Origin: Alphaproteobacteria bacterium
Lineage (GTDB): Bacteria > Pseudomonadota > Alphaproteobacteria > UBA828
Length of the DNA stretch: 64,000 nt
Reading direction: 5' to 3'
NCBI GenBank assembly: GCA_963422645.2
Contig: CAXXVO010000007.1
Location: 808,542-872,541, forward strand
The position numbers were made by a program, and so were the translations under genes. The notes below the pieces were generated by a model. It saw only the letters and a list, made by a program, of their open reading frames with translations. It made no database searches and had not been told where the DNA came from. Positions 38,461-64,000 of this stretch are shown here, one piece after another. The number at the start of each line of letters is the position of its first letter. Within the stretch, counting starts at the first letter, position 1.

Positions 38461-38694
38461 AGGATTCACGGTAGGCAACATTCCGCGCACAAGTTGGCTG
38501 CGCGCAACAGCTCCAGGGTTGAAATCGCGATTAACCGTACCCGTAACTACCCAGGTACCCCGCCGCCAGTTCTGAGTGCGTGCTGATGTTGCTTGCCGTC
38601 GGTGCCGTTTCGCCGTCGGCGCGTCGTTGATCCCCGCTTGACTGTATAGGTTCTCTCGCCTATGGGTTGCACTCTCGCATGAGAGGAGCAGCCG

Positions 38695-39363
38695 GTGGGG
38701 TATTTCGGGTCGAAGGCGACGACCGGTCTGAGCCAGGCGCTGATTGCGCTGATGCCGCGGCACTCTGTCTATATCGAGAGCCATCTTGGGGGCGGGGCGC
38801 TGATGAAGCGCAAGCCTGCGGCCATGCGCTCGATCGGGATCGACCGCGACGAGCGGGCGCTTGAGGCCTTTGGCTGCGACTACCCGGTGGAGTTGGTGCA
38901 CGGCTGCGCCCATTCCTTCCTGGCCTCGTTCCCGTTTCTGGGCCCGGAGCTGGTCTACAGCGATCCGCCCTATCTGCACGCGACCCGGCGTTCGTCGCAG
39001 CGCTACCGCTTCGAGTACGAGGAGGCCGACCACGTCGCGCTCCTCGAACTGCTCAAGGGTCTGCCCTGCCAGGTGATGGTCTCGGGCCACCCGTCTGCGC
39101 TCTATGACGAGCTGCTGGCGGGCTGGCGCCGGCTGGCGCTGCAGGTGACGACCCAGGCCCAGGTGCGGACCGAGGTCGTGTGGTTCAACTTCGCGCCTGA
39201 CCGGGTGCACTGGGCGAGCTTCGCCGGCCGGAACTTCACCGAGCGCCAGTGCATCAAGCGCAAGGCGGCCAACTGGGGCCGGCGCTACGAGGCCATGCCG
39301 GCGGGCGAACGCCTGGCGGTGCTGGCCGCGATCATGGCCGTCGAGGCCGACGAGGGTTCGTGA
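38695..39363 (+). CDS. Compact Dam/D12-like DNA adenine methyltransferase
   Basis: GAGGAG RBS; GYFGSK (motif X), YIESHLGGGA (motif I variant), GIDRD, VYSDPPY (motif IV), RTEVVWFNF. Confidence 0.88.
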   Translation: MGYFGSKATTGLSQALIALMPRHSVYIESHLGGGALMKRKPAAMRSIGIDRDERALEAFGCDYPVELVHGCAHSFLASFPFLGPELVYSDPPYLHATRRSSQRYRFEYEEADHVALLELLKGLPCQVMVSGHPSALYDELLAGWRRLALQVTTQAQVRTEVVWFNFAPDRVHWASFAGRNFTERQCIKRKAANWGRRYEAMPAGERLAVLAAIMAVEADEGS

Positions 39364-40901
39364 CAGTGTCGCGCTGGCACGAGGACCTCGCTGCCCACGA
39401 CGAGGCCTTCGCGTGCCTGCAGGACCTTTTCACCCCACAATCCTTCGCAATGACCGCCGTCAAAGCCATTCGGGAATGGGGCCAGAGGTTGCTGCGCCTG
39501 AGCGCGGCCCTGGTCAAGGAGAACGACGCGCTGGAGCGGGAGAACGCCCGCTTGCGCGAGCGGATCGCCGAACTCGAGCGCAGCGCCGCGCTCGACAGCA
39601 CCACCAGCTCCAAGCCGCCGGCCAGCGACGGTCTGAAGAAGAAGAGCGGTGACCGGGAGAAGCGCACCCGGAGCCAGCGCGGCAAGTCCGACAGGCCCAG
39701 TGGCGGCCAGCCGGGCCACAAGGGAACTACCCTGGAGCGGACCGCGACGCCCGACCATGTCGTCGATCATGATCCGTCCGCCTGTGAGGGCTGCGGCGCG
39801 CCGCTGTCGGACGCTGACCGTCACGGAGCCCCCGTCTGCCGGCAGGTCTTCGATGTGCCCGAGCCGCAGCCCCTCGAGGTCACCGAACATCGCGGCCATC
39901 GTTGCCTCTGCGCTGCCTGCGGCACCGTGACGACAGCCGTCTTCCCGAACGGCGTGAGCGCACCGGTCCAATACGGGCCGCGCATCACCGCGTGGGTGAC
40001 CTACCTGCTGCACGCTCAGTTCATTCCCGAGAAGCGGGTCGCCGAGGTCATGAGCGACCTCTTCGCGGTCAAGCTCTCAACAGCCACCATCGTCGCCATG
40101 GGAAGGCGCACCGCCCGGCGCTTCGAGGGCTTCCTCGATCGCCTCGCGGAGATCATCCGCACCGCAGCCCCAGTCAAACACCTCGACGAGACCGGCATCC
40201 GCATCGCCGCCCGGACCCATTGGCTCCATGTGCTGTGCACCCCGTTGCTCACCATCCTGCGCGTCGCCACCGGGCGCAGCCACATCGACGAGAAGCTCAA
40301 CGGCATCGTCATCCATGACGACTACGCCACCTACTTCGCTCTCGAGGGCGTGCGCCACGGGGCCTGCAACGCCCATCACCTGCGCGAGCTCCAAGCCCTC
40401 ATCGAGATCGAGAAGGAAGACTGGGCAACGAGCACGCACCGGCTCCTCATCCGTGCCAACAGAGCCGCCCGCTTCGCCCACAAGAACGACCGCGACGTGC
40501 CCGCCTCACTGGTGGCCCGCATCTCGCGAGCCTGGGACCGCATCCTCGAACGTGCCATCGCCTCTCACGAAGAAATGCCACCGCTCCAGACCGGAAAGCG
40601 CGGACGACAAAAGCGCCGCATCGGTCACAACCTCGCCCTCCGACTCCAGAAGTACAAGGAGGGGTGCCTGCGCTTCCTCACCGATCCGCGAACCCCCTTC
40701 TCCAACAACGAGGCCGAGCGCGACCTCCGAATGGGCAAGCTGCGCCAGAAAATCTCAGGCGGCTTCCGCTCGATACAAGGCGCCCGCGACTTCGCAAACC
40801 TGCGATCCGTCATCGCCACCGCTCGAAAACAGCGCTGGAATGTCCTCGAAACCCTGGCGCACCCCGATCCAATCCAGCTGATCCCCGTATTGCGCTTCTG
40901 A
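39360..40901 (+). CDS. IS66 transposase TnpC
   Basis: GTG overlapping the MTase stop; coiled coil, SSKPPASD, GGQPGHKG, Zn finger, HLDETG, HDDY, CNAHHLREL, SNNEAERDLR. Confidence 0.93.
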   Translation: MTVSRWHEDLAAHDEAFACLQDLFTPQSFAMTAVKAIREWGQRLLRLSAALVKENDALERENARLRERIAELERSAALDSTTSSKPPASDGLKKKSGDREKRTRSQRGKSDRPSGGQPGHKGTTLERTATPDHVVDHDPSACEGCGAPLSDADRHGAPVCRQVFDVPEPQPLEVTEHRGHRCLCAACGTVTTAVFPNGVSAPVQYGPRITAWVTYLLHAQFIPEKRVAEVMSDLFAVKLSTATIVAMGRRTARRFEGFLDRLAEIIRTAAPVKHLDETGIRIAARTHWLHVLCTPLLTILRVATGRSHIDEKLNGIVIHDDYATYFALEGVRHGACNAHHLRELQALIEIEKEDWATSTHRLLIRANRAARFAHKNDRDVPASLVARISRAWDRILERAIASHEEMPPLQTGKRGRQKRRIGHNLALRLQKYKEGCLRFLTDPRTPFSNNEAERDLRMGKLRQKISGGFRSIQGARDFANLRSVIATARKQRWNVLETLAHPDPIQLIPVLRF

Positions 40902-41131
40902 AATCCTGCGCTGCTCCGGGAAAGCGCCGCCTGACCCCTGGCTGGTCAGAACCATCAATCCATCACGTCCGAGTGCTCGGCAGAATCAGACCTGGGCAGT
41001 TACCCGTACCCACCTAATACCCTGCTCCTTCCCTCGCCCCAGGGTCCTGCCCGGTTCGTGGGAGGGAGAATTACGCGGACAATTTGAATCTCTAGCGACC
41101 AGATATCCAACCTCTGGAAGCGGAGACGAGT

Positions 41132-41326
41132 ATGTCCTCGTACAAGGAGATGAAGCAGACCGTTCGGAAGTATGCGCGATTGGGCTTCAGCGTGATCAAG
41201 ACCCGCCGCAACCATTGGCGGTTTTATCGCCCGGATATGGCTTATCCAGTGTTTGCACCCAGCACCCCATCCGACTGTCGCGCAATCAAGAACCTCGACG
41301 CGAAAATTCGGCGCAGTATGAGGTAG
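41132..41326 (+). CDS. Small HicA-like protein
   Basis: 64 aa, basic; LGFSVIKTRRNHWRF...PSTPSD.RA..N pattern; GGAG RBS; followed by a terminator. Confidence 0.6.
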   Translation: MSSYKEMKQTVRKYARLGFSVIKTRRNHWRFYRPDMAYPVFAPSTPSDCRAIKNLDAKIRRSMR

Positions 41327-55362: not shown

Positions 55363-57081
55363 GTAACTGCCCAGGTACCCCCTCTCTCTTATGGAACAAG
55401 CCAGTTCCTTTTGCGTCAACGCCCCCACGCCGCGGGGGTGCCTACTCTCTTGAGCGCGAGAGGATGATGAACGCCGCGTCGCGAACAAGATGAGAGGACA
55501 GCGATACTCAGGATGAGCCGGAGAAGTTCAGGAGCGCAGTATAGGGATCAGCTGCATCGGTTCCGGGTGCGCCAGGATTTGCAGGATGTTCCAGCCTTGC
55601 TTTCGAGCGGTGACGATGACGCTGCGCATTCCGGCGAAGTTGCAGGCGCCTTGCAGGGAGCGGAAGCCGCCTGAGATCTTCTCATGCACTTTGTTCATAC
55701 GGATGTCACGCTCCGCCTCGTTATTCGTGAACGGCGTGCGCAGGTCGGTGAGGAAGCGCAGGCAGCCCTCCTTATGCTTTTGAAGGCGGCGCGCGAGGTT
55801 GTGGCCGATGCGGCGTTTCTTTCGCCCTCGCTTTGCGATCTGGAGCGGCGGTTGGGCCTCATGGAAGGCGATGGCTTCTTCGAGGATACGGTCCCATGCC
55901 CTTGAGATGCGGGCCACCAGGGAGGCGGGGACTTGACGGTCTTTCTCACGGGCGAAGCGGGCGGCCCTGCGCGCGCGCTGAAGCAGGCGGTGCATGCTCG
56001 CCGCCCATTCCTCCTTCTCGATGTCGATCAGGGCCTGGAGTTCGCGCAGGTGATGTGCGTTGCAGGCGCCGTGGCGGACGCCCTTGATGGTGAAGTAGGG
56101 GGCGAAGTCGTCGTGGACGAGGATGCCTTTCAGGTTCTTTTCGACATCGCCGCGTCCCTCGCCGATGCGCAGGACGGTGAGCAACGGGGTGCACAGCACA
56201 TGGAGCCAGCGGGTACGGGCGGCGATACGCAGGCCGGTCTCGTCGAGGTGCTTGACCGGCGCCTGCGTGCGGATCAGATCGGCGACATGGTCGAGGAAGC
56301 CCTCGAAGCGCTGCGCTGTGCGCCGGCCCATGGCGGCGATCGTGGCAGTGGAGATGGACACCGCGAAGATGTCGCTCATGAGTTCGGCCAGACGCTTCTC
56401 GGGCACGAACTGGGCGTACAGCAGGTAACTCACCCAAGCGGTGATGCGAGGGCCGTACTGGACCGGGGCGGTGACGCCCGGCGGGAAGGCGGCTCGTGTC
56501 AGCGTGCCGCATGCGCCGCAGAGGCAGCGATGGGCGCGGTGTTCGGTGACCTCGAGAGGCTGCGGCTCGGGTACGTCGAAGACCTGCCGACAGGCGGGCG
56601 CGCCTTGCCGGTCGGCGTCCGAGAGCTCGACGCCACAGCCGGAACAGGTGGAGGGGTGGTGATCGACGACACGGTCCGGGCTGTCGCTCCGCGCGAGGGT
56701 GGTTCCCTTGTGGCCGGGCTGGCCGCCACTGGGCCCGCCGGACTTTCCGCGCTGGCTTTGGGTGCGCCTCTGGGCTCCGCTTTTCTTCTTGAGCCCGTCG
56801 CTGGCGGGGGGCTTGCTGCTTGTGGTGCTGTTGAGGGCCGCGCTGCGCTCGAGTTCGGCGATGCGCTCGCGCAGGGCCGCGTTCTCCTGCTCGAGTGCGG
56901 CATTTTCCCGGCGAGCGCGGTGGCTGATCGCAGCAGCCCCTGCCCCCATTCCCGGACGGCAACGACGACAGTGGTTGCGAGGGATGATGGCTCGAGAAGC
57001 TCCTTCAGGCAGCAGAAGGCCTCGTTACGGGCGGCGAGGTCTTCGTGCCAGTGCGACACCGTCACGTGTCTTCGGCCTCGA
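55363..57081 (-). mobile_element. IS66-family variant B, 5'-truncated
   Basis: IRR GTAACTGCCCAGG at 55363; only the last codons of its MTase gene (EAEDT-stop) remain at 57062-57081. Confidence 0.85.
55528..57065 (-). pseudogene. IS66 transposase variant B with frameshift near 56910
   Basis: N-terminus VTVSHWHEDL (GTG 57065) is out of frame with the HLDETG/CNAHHLREL/NNEAERD body; variant A is in frame at this point. Confidence 0.8.
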
Positions 57082-58046
57082 CGGAGCCAGCGCGGCAAGT
57101 CCGACAGGCCCAGTGGCGGCCAGCCGGGCCACAAGGGAACTACCCTGGAGCGGACCGCGACGCCCGACCATGTCGTCGATCATGATCCGTCCGCCTGTGA
57201 GGGCTGCGGCGCGCCGCTGTCGGACGCTGACCGTCACGGAGCCCCCGTCTGCCGGCAGGTCTTCGATGTGCCCGAGCCGCAGCCCCTCGAGGTCACCGAA
57301 CATCGCGGCCATCGTTGCCTCTGCGCTGCCTGCGGCACCGTGACGACAGCCGTCTTCCCGAACGGCGTGAGCGCACCGGTCCAATACGGGCCGCGCATCA
57401 CCGCGTGGGTGACCTACCTGCTGCACGCTCAGTTCATTCCCGAGAAGCGGGTCGCCGAGGTCATGAGCGACCTCTTCGCGGTCAAGCTCTCAACAGCCAC
57501 CATCGTCGCCATGGGAAGGCGCACCGCCCGGCGCTTCGAGGGCTTCCTCGATCGCCTCGCGGAGATCATCCGCACCGCAGCCCCAGTCAAACACCTCGAC
57601 GAGACCGGCATCCGCATCGCCGCCCGGACCCATTGGCTCCATGTGCTGTGCACCCCGTTGCTCACCATCCTGCGCGTCGCCACCGGGCGCAGCCACATCG
57701 ACGAGAAGCTCAACGGCATCGTCATCCATGACGACTACGCCACCTACTTCGCTCTCGAGGGCGTGCGCCACGGGGCCTGCAACGCCCATCACCTGCGCGA
57801 GCTCCAAGCCCTCATCGAGATCGAGAAGGAAGACTGGGCAACGAGCACGCACCGGCTCCTCATCCGTGCCAACAGAGCCGCCCGCTTCGCCCACAAGAAC
57901 GACCGCGACGTGCCCGCCTCACTGGTGGCCCGCATCTCGCGAGCCTGGGACCGCATCCTCGAACGTGCCATCGCCTCTCACGAAGAAATGCCACCGCTCC
58001 AGACCGGAAAGCGCGGACGACAAAAGCGCCGCATCGGTCACAACCT
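57082..58046 (+). pseudogene. Internal fragment of IS66 variant A transposase
   Basis: 965 bp matching 39669-40633; interrupted at the HNL codons by another IS. Confidence 0.88.
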
Positions 58047-60403
58047 CAGACTTCCTGACCTCTGCTGATTTTAGGTGACACGAGCCGCGCGGATTCCGAG
58101 GCCCCGTCGATGTCATAGACTATGCGCAGACGGGTGCCGGGGAAGACCGTTTCGGTGGCGTTCAGGTCGCTCAGAACCGCATCGATCCAACGGTCGCAGG
58201 CGTCGTTTGCGAGGCCAAGAATGTGGACCCGCAGGAGGCCATTGCCAGGATCCGGCAGGATGTCGGCATCGGCGGTGAGCAGCGCTTGAAGCAGTTTCCG
58301 GGGATGGGGCTTGTGGCCCTGCGCCTGCATGACGGGAAGCATCATGCGGGTTTCGGCGCGGTAGGCGATCATCCGGATGACGTCGAGGAGGAGGCGCTCG
58401 CGCGCGGGCAAGGCATCGAGCTGCTCGGCTTCGTCGAGGTCGCCGGCCCGGCAGTGCTTGGGCGTCTCCCTGCGGCTGGCCCTGACGATGTCGCGGACAT
58501 CCTGGAGGTCCCTGACTTCCCTCCTGAGTTCCGCCGTCGGCTGCTTCTTCCGGGCCGTGTCGGCGATGCGGTTGCGCAGGCGGCCAAGCTGGCGGTCGAG
58601 GCGATGGATTGCCTTGTCATAGGCCCGCCGCAGCGGGTTGACGACCATGGCGGCGGGATCGAGAGGCTCGAGCTCGTGGGTCGGCAGGGCGTCGAGATTG
58701 AACTCGTCACGCATGTACTTGAAGAAGTTCTCCTGCGACCAGCGCGAGAACATGGCGCCCGCAACCTCAGCCATCGGCTTGTGCGGATCGGTGGTGATCA
58801 GCGGCACCTGACGGCCGTTGTCGAGCAGGCGGCGGATCTGGCGCACCCTGAAGCCGTTCGGCAACGTCACCGGCTTCTCAGCCAGCCGCATGGTGGCGCT
58901 GCCGTCCGCCGCCGGTCCGTGAATGGGAACGGTCATCGCGCCGAAGTCCTCGGCCGGCCAGTCCTCGCCCCTGAAGTTCTTGTGCCAGGTCAGGCAGGCG
59001 ACGCCGCGCCTCGCCAGCCGGCGGAACAGATCCGGGCTCCAGCCCTCGCGGTCGAAGACCAGGGTGAGCGCCGGCTGGCCGGGATGCTCGGCGGTCAGGT
59101 CCGGCGCCCCGGCGCCAACGATCCCAAGCTCCTGCAGCGCCGGCACCACGTCGGCTTCGATGGCCGCGACCATCTTCGGGTCCAGCGGCTTGTGCAGACA
59201 GAGCAGCGGCTTGCCGCCCAGAGCGTTGATCCAGTAGCTGGCGCTCGCCGGCAGGCACAGCTTCTCGCGCGAGACGAAGTGCTTGGGCAAGCGCCCCTTG
59301 CGGCCGGAGTAGACCTTGACGTGCCCGTCGATGGCCAGCGTCGCCCAGAGCTCCGGCTCGTCGGCCTGCCAGCGCCTGGCAAGGGCGAGCTGCCACGCCC
59401 GCACGCCGGCCTCGTCGTCGGCGATGAGAGCGATCTTGCGGCGCAGCGTCTTGACCTCGGGGCAGCGATCGAGGCCGAGAATGGCGCCCCATTCGCCCGG
59501 CGCCTGGTAGCGCAGGCTCTCGGGGTTGCGCACCCGCGCCAAGGTCATGAAGGCCAGGAAGAGCAGGATCGTAGGCAAGCCGTAATAGCCCTTCGGCAGC
59601 AATGGCAGGAGACCGGTCTCGGAGAGAAGACCTTCCTTCAGCAGGGCCGGCAGGGCGGCGAGCACGCCGCCGAAGCGGACACCGCGGGCGGCGGCGGCGA
59701 ACTGCGGTTCGACCGGCCCCGCCTGTCCACAACTGGCCAGAACCCGAGCCGGAACATCGCAAGTCGCACGCCCCATCGGCGCCTGCCGGTCCCGCCGATC
59801 GCGCGCGCTGCGATCCGTTTGCGGCTGCGCTTCCAGCCCCGGCGCCGTCTCCGGCCCCGGGGCACCGGTACTCTCTTCATCGACACGGCCTTCAGGAGCC
59901 GCACCCGCGTCAGGCGGCGCAGCCAGCGCTGAGCGTCCGGGCTCCCCATCCGCCTCCGTGTTGCCGATCAGTCCCTGACGGCGCCACTTGTTGACCGATG
60001 GCGCTGACACGCCGAGAACCCGGGCCGCCGCAGAGCCGCTCAGGCCCGATGCCAGCAACGCCGTCGCCTTCTCCGCCAACTCCGGAGTGAACACCGACGG
60101 CCCGCGACCGCGCCGGGGCTTCATGAACCCCGCTTCGCCCTCGGCCAGGTAGCGCCGTCGTGCGCGCTGCACCGTCGCGCGCGAGACAGCGAAAGCGTCA
60201 GCCAGTTCCTGCGGCGAGACCGCGCTGATCGCCGCGAGGCGGCCGATCCGCAAGAGCATGGCCGTGCGGTCATCGGCGGCGTGGCTGTCAAAGGGAATGA
60301 GGTTGGAAAAGTAGGTGAAGGTGTCGTCCGAGATCAGGACGGCGAAGCAGCTGTTGCCGATCGAGACCGCCTCTGGAGGGCACATTGGGAGGGTACTGGG
60401 CAT
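58046..60403 (-). CDS. Large DDE transposase (785 aa) with N-terminal HTHs
   Basis: AIDGH, LVFDREGWS, RWSQENFFKYMR (YREK-like); TATAAT at 60429-60434 upstream. Confidence 0.85.
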   Translation of the reverse strand: MPSTLPMCPPEAVSIGNSCFAVLISDDTFTYFSNLIPFDSHAADDRTAMLLRIGRLAAISAVSPQELADAFAVSRATVQRARRRYLAEGEAGFMKPRRGRGPSVFTPELAEKATALLASGLSGSAAARVLGVSAPSVNKWRRQGLIGNTEADGEPGRSALAAPPDAGAAPEGRVDEESTGAPGPETAPGLEAQPQTDRSARDRRDRQAPMGRATCDVPARVLASCGQAGPVEPQFAAAARGVRFGGVLAALPALLKEGLLSETGLLPLLPKGYYGLPTILLFLAFMTLARVRNPESLRYQAPGEWGAILGLDRCPEVKTLRRKIALIADDEAGVRAWQLALARRWQADEPELWATLAIDGHVKVYSGRKGRLPKHFVSREKLCLPASASYWINALGGKPLLCLHKPLDPKMVAAIEADVVPALQELGIVGAGAPDLTAEHPGQPALTLVFDREGWSPDLFRRLARRGVACLTWHKNFRGEDWPAEDFGAMTVPIHGPAADGSATMRLAEKPVTLPNGFRVRQIRRLLDNGRQVPLITTDPHKPMAEVAGAMFSRWSQENFFKYMRDEFNLDALPTHELEPLDPAAMVVNPLRRAYDKAIHRLDRQLGRLRNRIADTARKKQPTAELRREVRDLQDVRDIVRASRRETPKHCRAGDLDEAEQLDALPARERLLLDVIRMIAYRAETRMMLPVMQAQGHKPHPRKLLQALLTADADILPDPGNGLLRVHILGLANDACDRWIDAVLSDLNATETVFPGTRLRIVYDIDGASESARLVSPKISRGQEV

Positions 60404-60556: not shown

Positions 60557-60994
60557 AACCTCGCGCGCCGCCTTCAAAAGCATAAGGAGGGCTGCCTGCG
60601 CTTCCTCACCGACCTGCGCACGCCGTTCACGAATAACGAGGCGGAGCGTGACATCCGTATGAACAAAGTGCATGAGAAGATCTCAGGCGGCTTCCGCTCC
60701 CTGCAAGGCGCCTGCAACTTCGCCGGAATGCGCAGCGTCATCGTCACCGCTCGAAAGCAAGGCTGGAACATCCTGCAAATCCTGGCGCACCCGGAACCGA
60801 TGCAGCTGATCCCTATACTGCGCTCCTGAACTTCTCCGGCTCATCCTGAGTATCGCTGTCCTCTCATCTTGTTCGCGACGCGGCGTTCATCATCCTCTCG
60901 CGCTCAAGAGAGTAGGCACCCCCGCGGCGTGGGGGCGTTGACGCAAAAGGAACTGGCTTGTTCCATAAGAGAGAGGGGGTACCTGGGCAGTTAC
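60557..60994 (+). mobile_element. IS66 variant B 3' end with IRR
   Basis: 438-bp inverted copy of 55363-55800; ends CCTGGGCAGTTAC. Confidence 0.88.
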
Positions 60995-63806: not shown

Positions 63807-64000
63807 AACCTCGCGCGCCGCCTTCAAAAGCATAAGGAGGGGTGCCTGCGCTTCCTCACCGATCCGCGAACCCCCTTCTCCAACAACGAGGCCGAGCGCG
63901 ACCTCCGAATGGGCAAGCTGCGCCAGAAAATCTCAGGCGGCTTCCGCTCGATACAAGGCGCCCGCGACTTCGCAAACCTGCGATCCGTCATCGCCACCGC
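63807..64000 (+). pseudogene. IS66 transposase 3' fragment, variant B/A chimera, runs off the window
   Basis: Matches variant B to about 63841, then variant A (GATCCGCGAACCCCCTTCTCCAAC...). Confidence 0.8.

Follow-up and report, generated by a model that had tools for sequence, protein, structure and literature searches.

The window analysed here is a stretch of 64,000 nucleotides of contig CAXXVO010000007.1 (positions 808,542 to 872,541, forward strand) from an alphaproteobacterial genome (assembly GCA_963422645.2; 5.9 Mb, 23 contigs, 67% G+C). It contains an intact insertion sequence (IS) of the IS66 family, designated here element A, whose features are listed in Table 1. The ends of the element, GTAACTACCCAGGT and ACCTGGGCAGTTAC, begin with GTAAC and match at 13 of 14 terminal bases. 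Only two credible genes are present, the open reading frame ORF1 and the transposase gene tnpC. An earlier note on this DNA had claimed that the inverted repeats and an exact 8-bp target duplication enclose only a methyltransferase-like gene and tnpC joined by GTGA, and direct reading of the sequence confirmed this. We found that ORF1, together with its promoter and leader, is a portable cassette common to several IS families.

Table 1. Features of element A and of a related copy in the window
Feature	Position in window	Strand	Basis and remarks
Target-site duplication, left copy, CCGTACCC	38535..38542	.	Direct reading; identical flanks for genome copy C8:847084-849544
Element A, IS66 family, 2461 bp, intact	38543..41003		Sequence read directly
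Left terminal inverted repeat, GTAACTACCCAGGT	38543..38556	+	Direct reading, repeat pair I5
Wider left-end stretch common to element A and variant B, GTAACTACCCAGGTACCCC	left end	+	Sequence comparison
Putative cassette promoter	38638..38665	+	Motif conservation; promoter function inferred
Promoter part: TTGAC (-35)	38638..38642	+	
Promoter part: half-site TATAG, followed by 10-nt spacer	38645..38649	+	
Promoter part: CTATGG (half-site and -10)	38660..38665	+	
Promoter-spacer site (element positions 106-111)	38648..38653	.	Interrupted by a ~2.5-kb IS in other A copies; intact in the window copy
Leader with predicted hairpin	38659..38700	+	RNAfold; GGAG Shine-Dalgarno at 38685-38688 in inner stem
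ORF1, 222 aa, GTG start; Dam-like class-I methyltransferase fold, Upf31 family	38695..39363	+	ORF list, profile search, model
GTGA overlap (TnpC start GTG, ORF1 stop TGA)	39360..39363	+	Direct reading
tnpC, 513 aa, IS66-family DDE transposase	39360..40901	+	NF033517, Pfam
Right terminal inverted repeat, ACCTGGGCAGTTAC (reverse complement GTAACTGCCCAGGT)	40990..41003	-	Direct reading
Target-site duplication, right copy, CCGTACCC	41004..41011	.	Direct reading
Variant B copy, 5'-truncated (B positions 786-2508, 99.9% identical)	55363..57084	-	Sequence comparison

The Shine-Dalgarno sequence stands six bases before the GTG start of ORF1. The overlapping start of tnpC is probably real as well, because the peptide that follows its GTG (V-T-[VL]-S-[RH]-W-H-E-D-L) is kept in A, in B and at the loci L046 and L068 in spite of codon changes, mostly at third positions.

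Element A is an active, recently expanded IS. Its own genome contains 15 full-length copies of form A, 11 of them with a perfect 8-bp duplication; both ORFs are open in 13 of the 15 and ORF1 is intact in 14. Form B (2508 bp), which has the same termini and 82% nucleotide identity with form A, is present in 36 full-length copies (ORF1 open in 34, TnpC intact in 32, both in 32, perfect duplication in 22). So regular a pattern far exceeds what chance would give. The copies are 99.7-100% identical to the query form, except for one A copy at 97% and one at 91%. With ORF1 as a query, 91 matches were revealed across the genome. As the earlier note had observed, variant B keeps the junction of the two genes: the copy in the window, which is only a 5'-truncated one, retains the last 22 nt of ORF1 (VEAEDT-stop), the GTGA junction, TnpC and the right end, and the same GTGA junction was found in the full-length B copies elsewhere in the genome.

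The genes on either side of the window copy are separated by 12-200 bp in five related species, and no element intervenes; the exact empty site could not be demonstrated in these relatives, where the intergenic DNA is not conserved, and the comparison is one of flanking-gene adjacency. A match to ORF1 at an E-value of 1e-30 or better was found in four of 40 related genomes, and its spread is therefore patchy.

TnpC was assigned to the IS66 family by the NF033517 model (1.4e-84; 284.5 bits, cut-off 180) and contains the Pfam domains DUF6444, zf-IS66 and DDE_Tnp_IS66 (PF03050, 2.8e-38; 132.4 bits, cut-off 23.1). Members of this family generate 8-bp target-site duplications and have terminal inverted repeats starting with GTAA. 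Element A has CCGTACCC on both sides and GTAACT... termini, besides the DDE_Tnp_IS66 domain of its transposase. The earlier note had placed the methyltransferase gene in the position of tnpA/tnpB, and this was not borne out. Neither tnpA nor tnpB was found in element A, where ORF1 is the sole ORF before tnpC and has no Pfam match to the IS66 accessory families. The best plasmid-borne relatives of TnpC belong to single-gene IS66 elements with 34-48% identity, including ISGst1 and ISGka4, and no relative of 60% identity or more was found in the plasmid collection. Moreover, the same genome contains a highly multi-copy sister element with the termini of element A, type C (1888 bp; GTAACTGCCCAGGT; e.g., G000:C8:74007-75894), that encodes a 501-aa TnpC only and has neither ORF1 nor a CATAG site in its promoter. 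A nucleotide search revealed roughly a hundred type C matches in the genome at about 65% identity; window fragments 55585-56869 and 39557-40856 match it weakly.

Wherever a TnpC match in the related genomes reaches 76% identity, it lies next to a match to ORF1. Matches of 53-59% start at query residue 35-46 and have no adjoining ORF1. TnpC thus has an N-terminal extension of ~35-45 aa, beginning at the ORF1 stop, which is missing in the ORF1-less relatives. Because the nearest relatives and type C are TnpC-only, comparison of these sequences indicates that ORF1 was added to a single-transposase IS66 element, tnpA/tnpB not being replaced, and that TnpC gained its N-terminal extension at the junction.

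To describe the distribution of the cassette, one genome per species was scanned; 345 ORF1 relatives were revealed, and the best-scoring 80 loci were kept. The gene behind ORF1 was classed by tblastn and then re-read by hand, which moved L103 to IS66 type 2, L117 and L119 to IS701, and L112 and L080 to type-2 remnants. An IS66 TnpC of the same type as in element A (type 1) follows ORF1 at 30 of these 80 loci (31 before L103 was re-read), and a TnpC of a second IS66 lineage (type 2, ~30% identical) at 21. At 19 loci the gene encodes a 429-aa DDE_Tnp_1_assoc/DDE_Tnp_1 transposase, classed as ISAs1/IS4-like from weak matches in a frame that starts at the ORF1 stop, and at six loci an IS701-family transposase (NF049999, 4.5e-92 and 4.1e-46). 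Type-2 remnants, one of them followed by an inserted IS1634, account for two loci, and no family was assigned at the remaining two, one of which ends early while the other is degenerate. IS1634 was considered as a further partner family and rejected: at L112 it follows what is left of a type-2 TnpC start, and at L080 the part shared is the cassette alone.

Across these families ORF1 retains 68-96% amino acid identity to the window ORF1, whereas the transposases are unrelated or ~30% identical. The repeated unit within genomes always takes in ORF1, and in each family the inverted repeats enclose it, with target duplications around the whole unit. The IS66 type-2 unit has GTAACTACTCACCCC termini and 8-bp duplications (4/4), the IS701-type unit CTCGACTTTGTACA termini and CTNAG duplications (4/4), and the ISAs1/IS4-like unit CAGCAGTTCTCATTTTG termini and 9-bp duplications (four of four copies in one genome; in a second, two of four were clearly readable). 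The ORF1 tree places the IS701-linked sequences within the clade of IS66 type 1 (support 100/99) and joins the ISAs1-like ones to part of type 2; it requires 11 changes of transposase label versus a minimum of seven. DNA homology between variant B and an IS701-type element (B 86-811, 82%) extends from 57 nt before the ORF1 start to its stop codon and ends there. In most cases ORF1 overlaps the transposase gene or is separated from it by 0-25 nt; in the IS701 type the distance is about 70-80 nt. The records with cassette loci are titled metagenome-assembled genomes of Alphaproteobacteria, Paracoccaceae, Pseudomonadales, Azotimanducaceae, Rariloculaceae, Poriferihabitaceae, Chromatiaceae, Tectimicrobiota and Caldilineaceae.

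Consequently, the suggestion that the pairing of the two genes is old and widespread, and not a one-off capture, was upheld both by the related genomes and by the best 80 loci. As a feature of IS66 elements the pairing is real; it is not confined to them, being found inside IS701-type and ISAs1/IS4-like elements as well. In a literature search that left ISfinder, REBASE and the main IS reviews outside its range, no paper was found with a methylase-like gene integral to IS66, IS701 or ISAs1 elements; PMC11410982 and PMC2266710 have no bearing on the matter. It should be mentioned that two IS701-type loci contain ~550 bp of extra DNA before the cassette (L074:3446-4000 and L117:671-1217), which in both cases includes a long ORF on the minus strand (176 and 127 aa, respectively); the two are not alike.

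Upstream of ORF1 we found, in every family, the motif TTGAC-N2-CATAG-N10-CTATGG. It reads as a sigma-70-like promoter in which 17 nt separate a -35 box from a TATGGT-like -10 box. The full motif is present in 60 of 69 distinct upstream regions, and the other nine keep TTGACnnCATAG (CCTAG at L077) with a variant -10. The columns of the two arms are 73-97% conserved, as against 32-47% in most spacer columns and 73% in one of them (34 distinct sequences, three of which are mis-anchored). In form A the first arm is TATAG in place of CATAG. The arrangement CATAG-N10-CTATG also stands upstream of a 53%-identical homologue on a Xanthomonas plasmid. In A and B the CATAG/CTATG sites are confined to the promoter and a single position within ORF1, the inverted repeats having none. 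As the element ends contain no candidate recognition site, the proposal of the earlier note that the methyltransferase may regulate the activity of the ends finds no support. GTAC, which is shared by the ends of A/B and of the IS701 type, was dropped as a candidate, as it is missing from the ends of the IS66 type-2 and ISAs1-like units.

In the predicted fold of the leader (RNAfold, -26.6 kcal/mol for form A), the region of the start codon is base-paired with that of CTATGG, and the inner stem contains the Shine-Dalgarno sequence. For 13 further distinct leaders of IS66 type 1 and IS701 and for one ISAs1/IS4-like leader the predicted folds were similar. The outer 5' arm of the hairpin would be absent from the transcript of the native promoter and present in read-through transcripts.

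A weak hint that such elements are expressed in relatives comes from metatranscriptomic contigs (four libraries, three studies) that contain relatives of both genes, 85-99% alike, two of the contigs bridging the junction; the RNA-library shares are 0.09-0.13, the contigs are uninformative on starts, strand and level, uncovered parts carry no meaning, and DNA may be present. In the same libraries the 3' end of ORF1 was also seen joined to other downstream sequences, one of which resembles the start of a type-2 TnpC.

ORF1 has no Pfam family at an E-value of 0.01 or better. A partial match to the TIGR00571 dam model (residues 85-154, E 3e-6) scored 27.1 bits (cut-off 114.85); a precomputed PF02086 match exists for a few relatives. 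The AlphaFold model of the protein (pLDDT, the predicted local distance difference test score, 76.4) has a class-I methyltransferase fold, and its top Foldseek match is Escherichia coli Dam (4rtl_A, E 4e-7; template-modelling scores of 0.49-0.54 over the Dam entries). A profile search of solved structures was uninformative, giving matches at chance level (tetratricopeptide-like designs) and DpnM at E 0.007. The prediction of a homodimer (scores 0.17 and 0.16, mark 0.42) weighs neither way. The protein contains motif I (HLGGGA), motif IV (DPPY) and two basic C-terminal helices. All 25 aligned relatives share residues G32-G34 of motif I, D50 and D90-P92 without variation, DPPY is present at all 80 loci, and at 75 of them the frame is open with both motifs. 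One of the five exceptions is truncated at the N-terminus; in the other four a stop falls within the tblastn alignment, and for at least L080 and L112 this is the natural stop.

A word-indexed search yielded 2873 relatives of ORF1, the best 120 of which are all at least 69% identical and ~220 aa long; many of the relative clusters have tens to hundreds of members. The IS-linked proteins form essentially one 50%-identity cluster, beyond which similarity falls to 40-57% in an exhaustive search of representatives. All plasmid homologues, among them upf31.0 of IncP-1 plasmids, have less than 60% identity; 134 of the 198 reside on plasmids typed as conjugative. On the Sphingobium plasmid pCFD-1-3 (L123, 2495-4771) a 48%-identical homologue is followed 200 bp on by the transposase of the IS1380-like ISSp1; the same ORF1 homologue recurs in about ten sphingomonad plasmids.

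Comparison of 45 pairs of ORF1 sequences gave dN/dS ratios (nonsynonymous to synonymous substitution rates) of 0.09-0.40, and between A and B the ratio is 0.22 for ORF1 and 0.24 for TnpC. ORF1 is under purifying selection; the neutral evolution that the earlier note had named as a finding able to overturn its proposal was not observed. The synonymous divergence (dS) between A and B is 0.32 in ORF1, half of that in tnpC (0.62), and the lower value could be due to exchange or conversion of the cassette between A and B, or to extra constraint on the ORF1 sequence. The same data bear on the proposal that the cassette is a mobile module for promoter and translation initiation in which ORF1 is a decaying or neutral relic, or that its presence in several families results from nesting of ISs by a free-standing ORF1. 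True nesting does occur at L112, where the IS1634 transposase stands behind the type-2 TnpC start remnant, and on Sphingobium plasmids an IS1380 element stands 200 bp after the ORF1 homologue. This proposal is nevertheless very improbable and already largely refuted by the selection and boundary data: ORF1 retains its frame and both motifs at most loci and is intact in 34/36 B and 14/15 A copies, its dN/dS ratios are low, and in the IS66, IS701-type and ISAs1-like units both ORF1 and the transposase are bounded by the inverted repeats and duplications.

The only studied homologue of ORF1 is Upf31 of the IncP-1beta plasmid pBP136 (BLASTP 4e-62; 43% identity over residues 1-220 of 222). The two proteins are similar in length (224 and 222 aa), in the HLGGG and DPPY motifs and in a basic helical C-terminus. 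According to a preprint (bioRxiv 10.1101/2024.02.05.579024), Upf31 represses its own promoter about fifty-fold (0.09 vs 4.76 XylE units), this promoter carries inverted repeats, a C-terminal dimerisation domain is predicted, and neither GATC methylation nor any modification detectable by SMRT (single-molecule, real-time) sequencing in a methylation-free host was found. A half-site of the repeat abuts the TTGACA -35 box of the Upf31 promoter. Upf31 differs from ORF1 in being encoded in the plasmid backbone outside any IS and in having the repeat CAGCATCG instead of CATAG; KorB, its proposed partner, has no counterpart in element A, and the IS-linked ORF1 proteins form a tight clade of their own apart from Upf31.

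Beside the observed anatomy, copy numbers, cross-family sharing, arm conservation and purifying selection on ORF1, the likeness to Upf31 suggests a function. By this analogy we infer that the motif is a promoter-operator, that ORF1 binds it and that this limits transposition. The explanation that we favour, with about even confidence, is that ORF1 is an autoregulator gating transposase expression, and that the cassette is a portable regulatory unit placed at the 5' end of a tnpC-only IS66 element. The cassette consists of the predicted sigma-70-like promoter, the structured leader and ORF1, a protein of the Upf31 family with a Dam-like fold. It ends exactly at the ORF1 stop, where the transposase starts via GTGA, and the transposase would therefore be made solely from cassette-driven, ORF1-coupled messages. 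ORF1 would bind the CATAG/CTATG half-sites of its own promoter and switch it off, the feedback acting via binding, via methylation of the half-sites or via both, and all copies of the element in the cell would be repressed in trans. A burst of transposase would be expected only where ORF1 is scarce, e.g., on entry into a naive host or after dilution, and the leader fold would block translation of read-through transcripts.

Several points weigh against this explanation. Upf31, on which the operator analogy is based, is only 43% identical and has a different operator (the CAGCATCG repeats). The conservation of CTATGG needs no operator, because this sequence is likely both the -10 box and a strand of the leader hairpin; it is the CATAG arm alone that promoter function leaves unexplained. 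A distance of 15 bp (1.5 helical turns) separates the centres of the half-sites, an unusual spacing for a symmetric dimer. The cassette is dispensable for proliferation, since the cassette-less type C is at least as numerous in the same genome. The best 80 of 345 loci include many copies from the same genomes, and their counts are not independent events. Finally, the invariant S-adenosylmethionine-binding and DPPY residues argue that catalysis, and not only binding, is under selection.

This last point leads to an alternative that we hold possible, though only tentatively, namely that ORF1 is an active site-specific N6-adenine methyltransferase whose target is CATAG/CTATG in its own promoter, and that the promoter is switched by the methyl mark rather than by bound protein. 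In that case expression would be linked to replication, through hemimethylation, or to arrival in the unmethylated state; such an activity is compatible with repression and may add to it. Besides the invariant motif I GGG, D50 and DPP residues, the DPPY at every locus and the dN/dS ratios well below 1, the resemblance to Dam in both the Foldseek and the TIGR00571 comparisons is as expected of a methylase, and both conserved half-sites, which overlap the -35/-10 spacer, hold adenines. DNA methylase activity of ORF1 is, however, unproven. The Dam model match is far below its cut-off, and no Pfam methyltransferase family was found at the threshold used. Motif I and DPPY are separated by only ~55 residues, where Dam has its DNA-recognition domain. 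Upf31, with the same motifs, gave no detectable methylation according to the preprint, in which the SMRT host bore the expression vector only; a rare, long site may have been missed there.

ORF1 could also be a passenger that aids its vector or host, either as an orphan methylase shielding incoming DNA from restriction or by reshaping the methylome as the copy number grows. For orphan methylases on plasmids, protection from restriction has been proposed, and the many conjugative plasmids among those with a homologue agree with it. The three plasmid contexts inspected are backbone regions with ParA/ParB, SprT-like and zincin-like (ArdC-type) genes, and the patchy distribution in the related genomes suggests horizontal spread. 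We nevertheless consider such a role unlikely. An IS by itself is not transferred as naked DNA, none of the elements was seen to contain a cognate or nearby restriction gene, and the TnpC-only type C thrives in the same host. The data on Upf31 showed no methylation. A protective gene need not be fixed between promoter and transposase start in several IS families, and the shielding and host-methylome ideas, both put forward in the earlier note, explain neither this fixed position nor the recurrence across families.

A more far-reaching version joins repression and methylation. According to it, the cassette was recruited repeatedly by two deep IS66 lineages, IS701 and ISAs1/IS4-like elements as a shared, self-encoded epigenetic switch, in which ORF1 would both bind and N6-methylate CATAG/CTATG of its own promoter and silence all cassette elements together. 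We regard this combination as doubtful. If it is true, the elements would become active only while still unmethylated in a naive host, and the cassette would provide trans-acting control of copy number and establishment across families, for thousands of copies in marine bacterial genomes.

Several further observations concern the copies of these elements. A nest of IS debris occupies positions 55363-58047, 60557-60994 and 63807-64000 of the window: the truncated B copy (minus strand) abuts an internal fragment of A (A 1127-2092 at 57082-58047), and a right-end piece of B and an A fragment cut by the window end are also present. Directly to the right of element A, in lineage-specific intergenic DNA, there is an ORF of 64 aa (41132-41326, plus strand). 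Elsewhere in the genome, several copies without matching duplications bear each other's flanking 8-mers (C15:4379-6839 with C15:1643-4150, and C9:531722-534228 with C6:391794-394300); for example, GATCTATG is found with CATAGATC, and GAATACAT/GGAGAGTC are swapped. From these sequences, the swapped flanks indicate inversions or exchanges by recombination between IS copies, or assembly joins at repeats.

The promoter-spacer site of other A copies is occupied, in both orientations, by an unrelated IS of ~2.5 kb with AGACTTCCTGACCTC termini and a 436-aa transposase with a helix-turn-helix and PF21804 (e.g., G000:C10:125349-127860, L125:150-2661). Five of the six inserts examined at A 106-111 carry this IS (1022, 2422 and three times 2512 bp), the sixth being a 148-bp remnant, and the left end of A is also found as 16 solo stubs that break off at position 107-111. 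The pattern suggests site-specific targeting or selection for promoter knock-outs.

The usual view of ISs is that they contain nothing beyond what arose in their own transposase family. In the present case a single regulatory module of methyltransferase fold passes between families and is maintained by selection, in elements with up to dozens of copies in one genome. Should ORF1 prove to be a repressor acting in trans or a methylase that targets its own promoter, it would offer a simple and testable account of the burst-then-silence of such elements, provide a mechanism of cross-talk between unrelated ISs in one cell and give a function to the widespread plasmid "orphan methylases" of the Upf31 type. 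Genes of this type are automatically annotated as DNA adenine methylases without evidence, which calls for caution in surveys of methylomes and defence systems.

Among known systems, the closest to element A in its transposase is the tnpC-only subgroup of IS66 (ISGst1 and ISGka4 of Geobacillus), which we take to be the ISBst12 group of ISfinder. Both have a single DDE_Tnp_IS66 transposase with DUF6444 and zf-IS66, no tnpA/tnpB, 8-bp target duplications and GTAA termini; element A differs by the extra promoter-plus-ORF1 cassette before tnpC and by the N-terminal extension of TnpC.

IS10/Tn10, IS50/Tn5 and IS903 are regulated by Dam methylation, which depends on the host Dam and on GATC sites in their ends, and fold-back protection against translation of read-through transcripts has been described for IS10 and IS50. 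Element A resembles them in that transposase expression would be tied to a function of the adenine-methylation type at the promoter, and its predicted leader fold resembles their protection against read-through. In contrast to these elements, its Dam-like protein, with putative methylase activity, is encoded by the element itself, and its ends contain no conserved site.

Repressors encoded before or overlapping the transposase are known from IS1 (InsA), IS911 (OrfA) and Tn3 (TnpR). Like them, ORF1 is a small upstream product proposed to limit the transposase in trans. InsA, OrfA and TnpR are helix-turn-helix or recombinase proteins of their own families, whereas ORF1 has a methyltransferase fold and is shared, together with its promoter, across transposase families.

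Finally, transporter ISs (tIS) are defined as IS derivatives with passenger genes (PMC9330008). As in a tIS, ORF1 lies within the inverted repeats and duplications in A, B, IS66 type-2, IS701-type and ISAs1-like units. Unlike the genes of a tIS, it stands between the promoter and the transposase, is translationally coupled to the latter and recurs across families; this position and the cross-family recurrence probably reflect control of the element itself rather than cargo.

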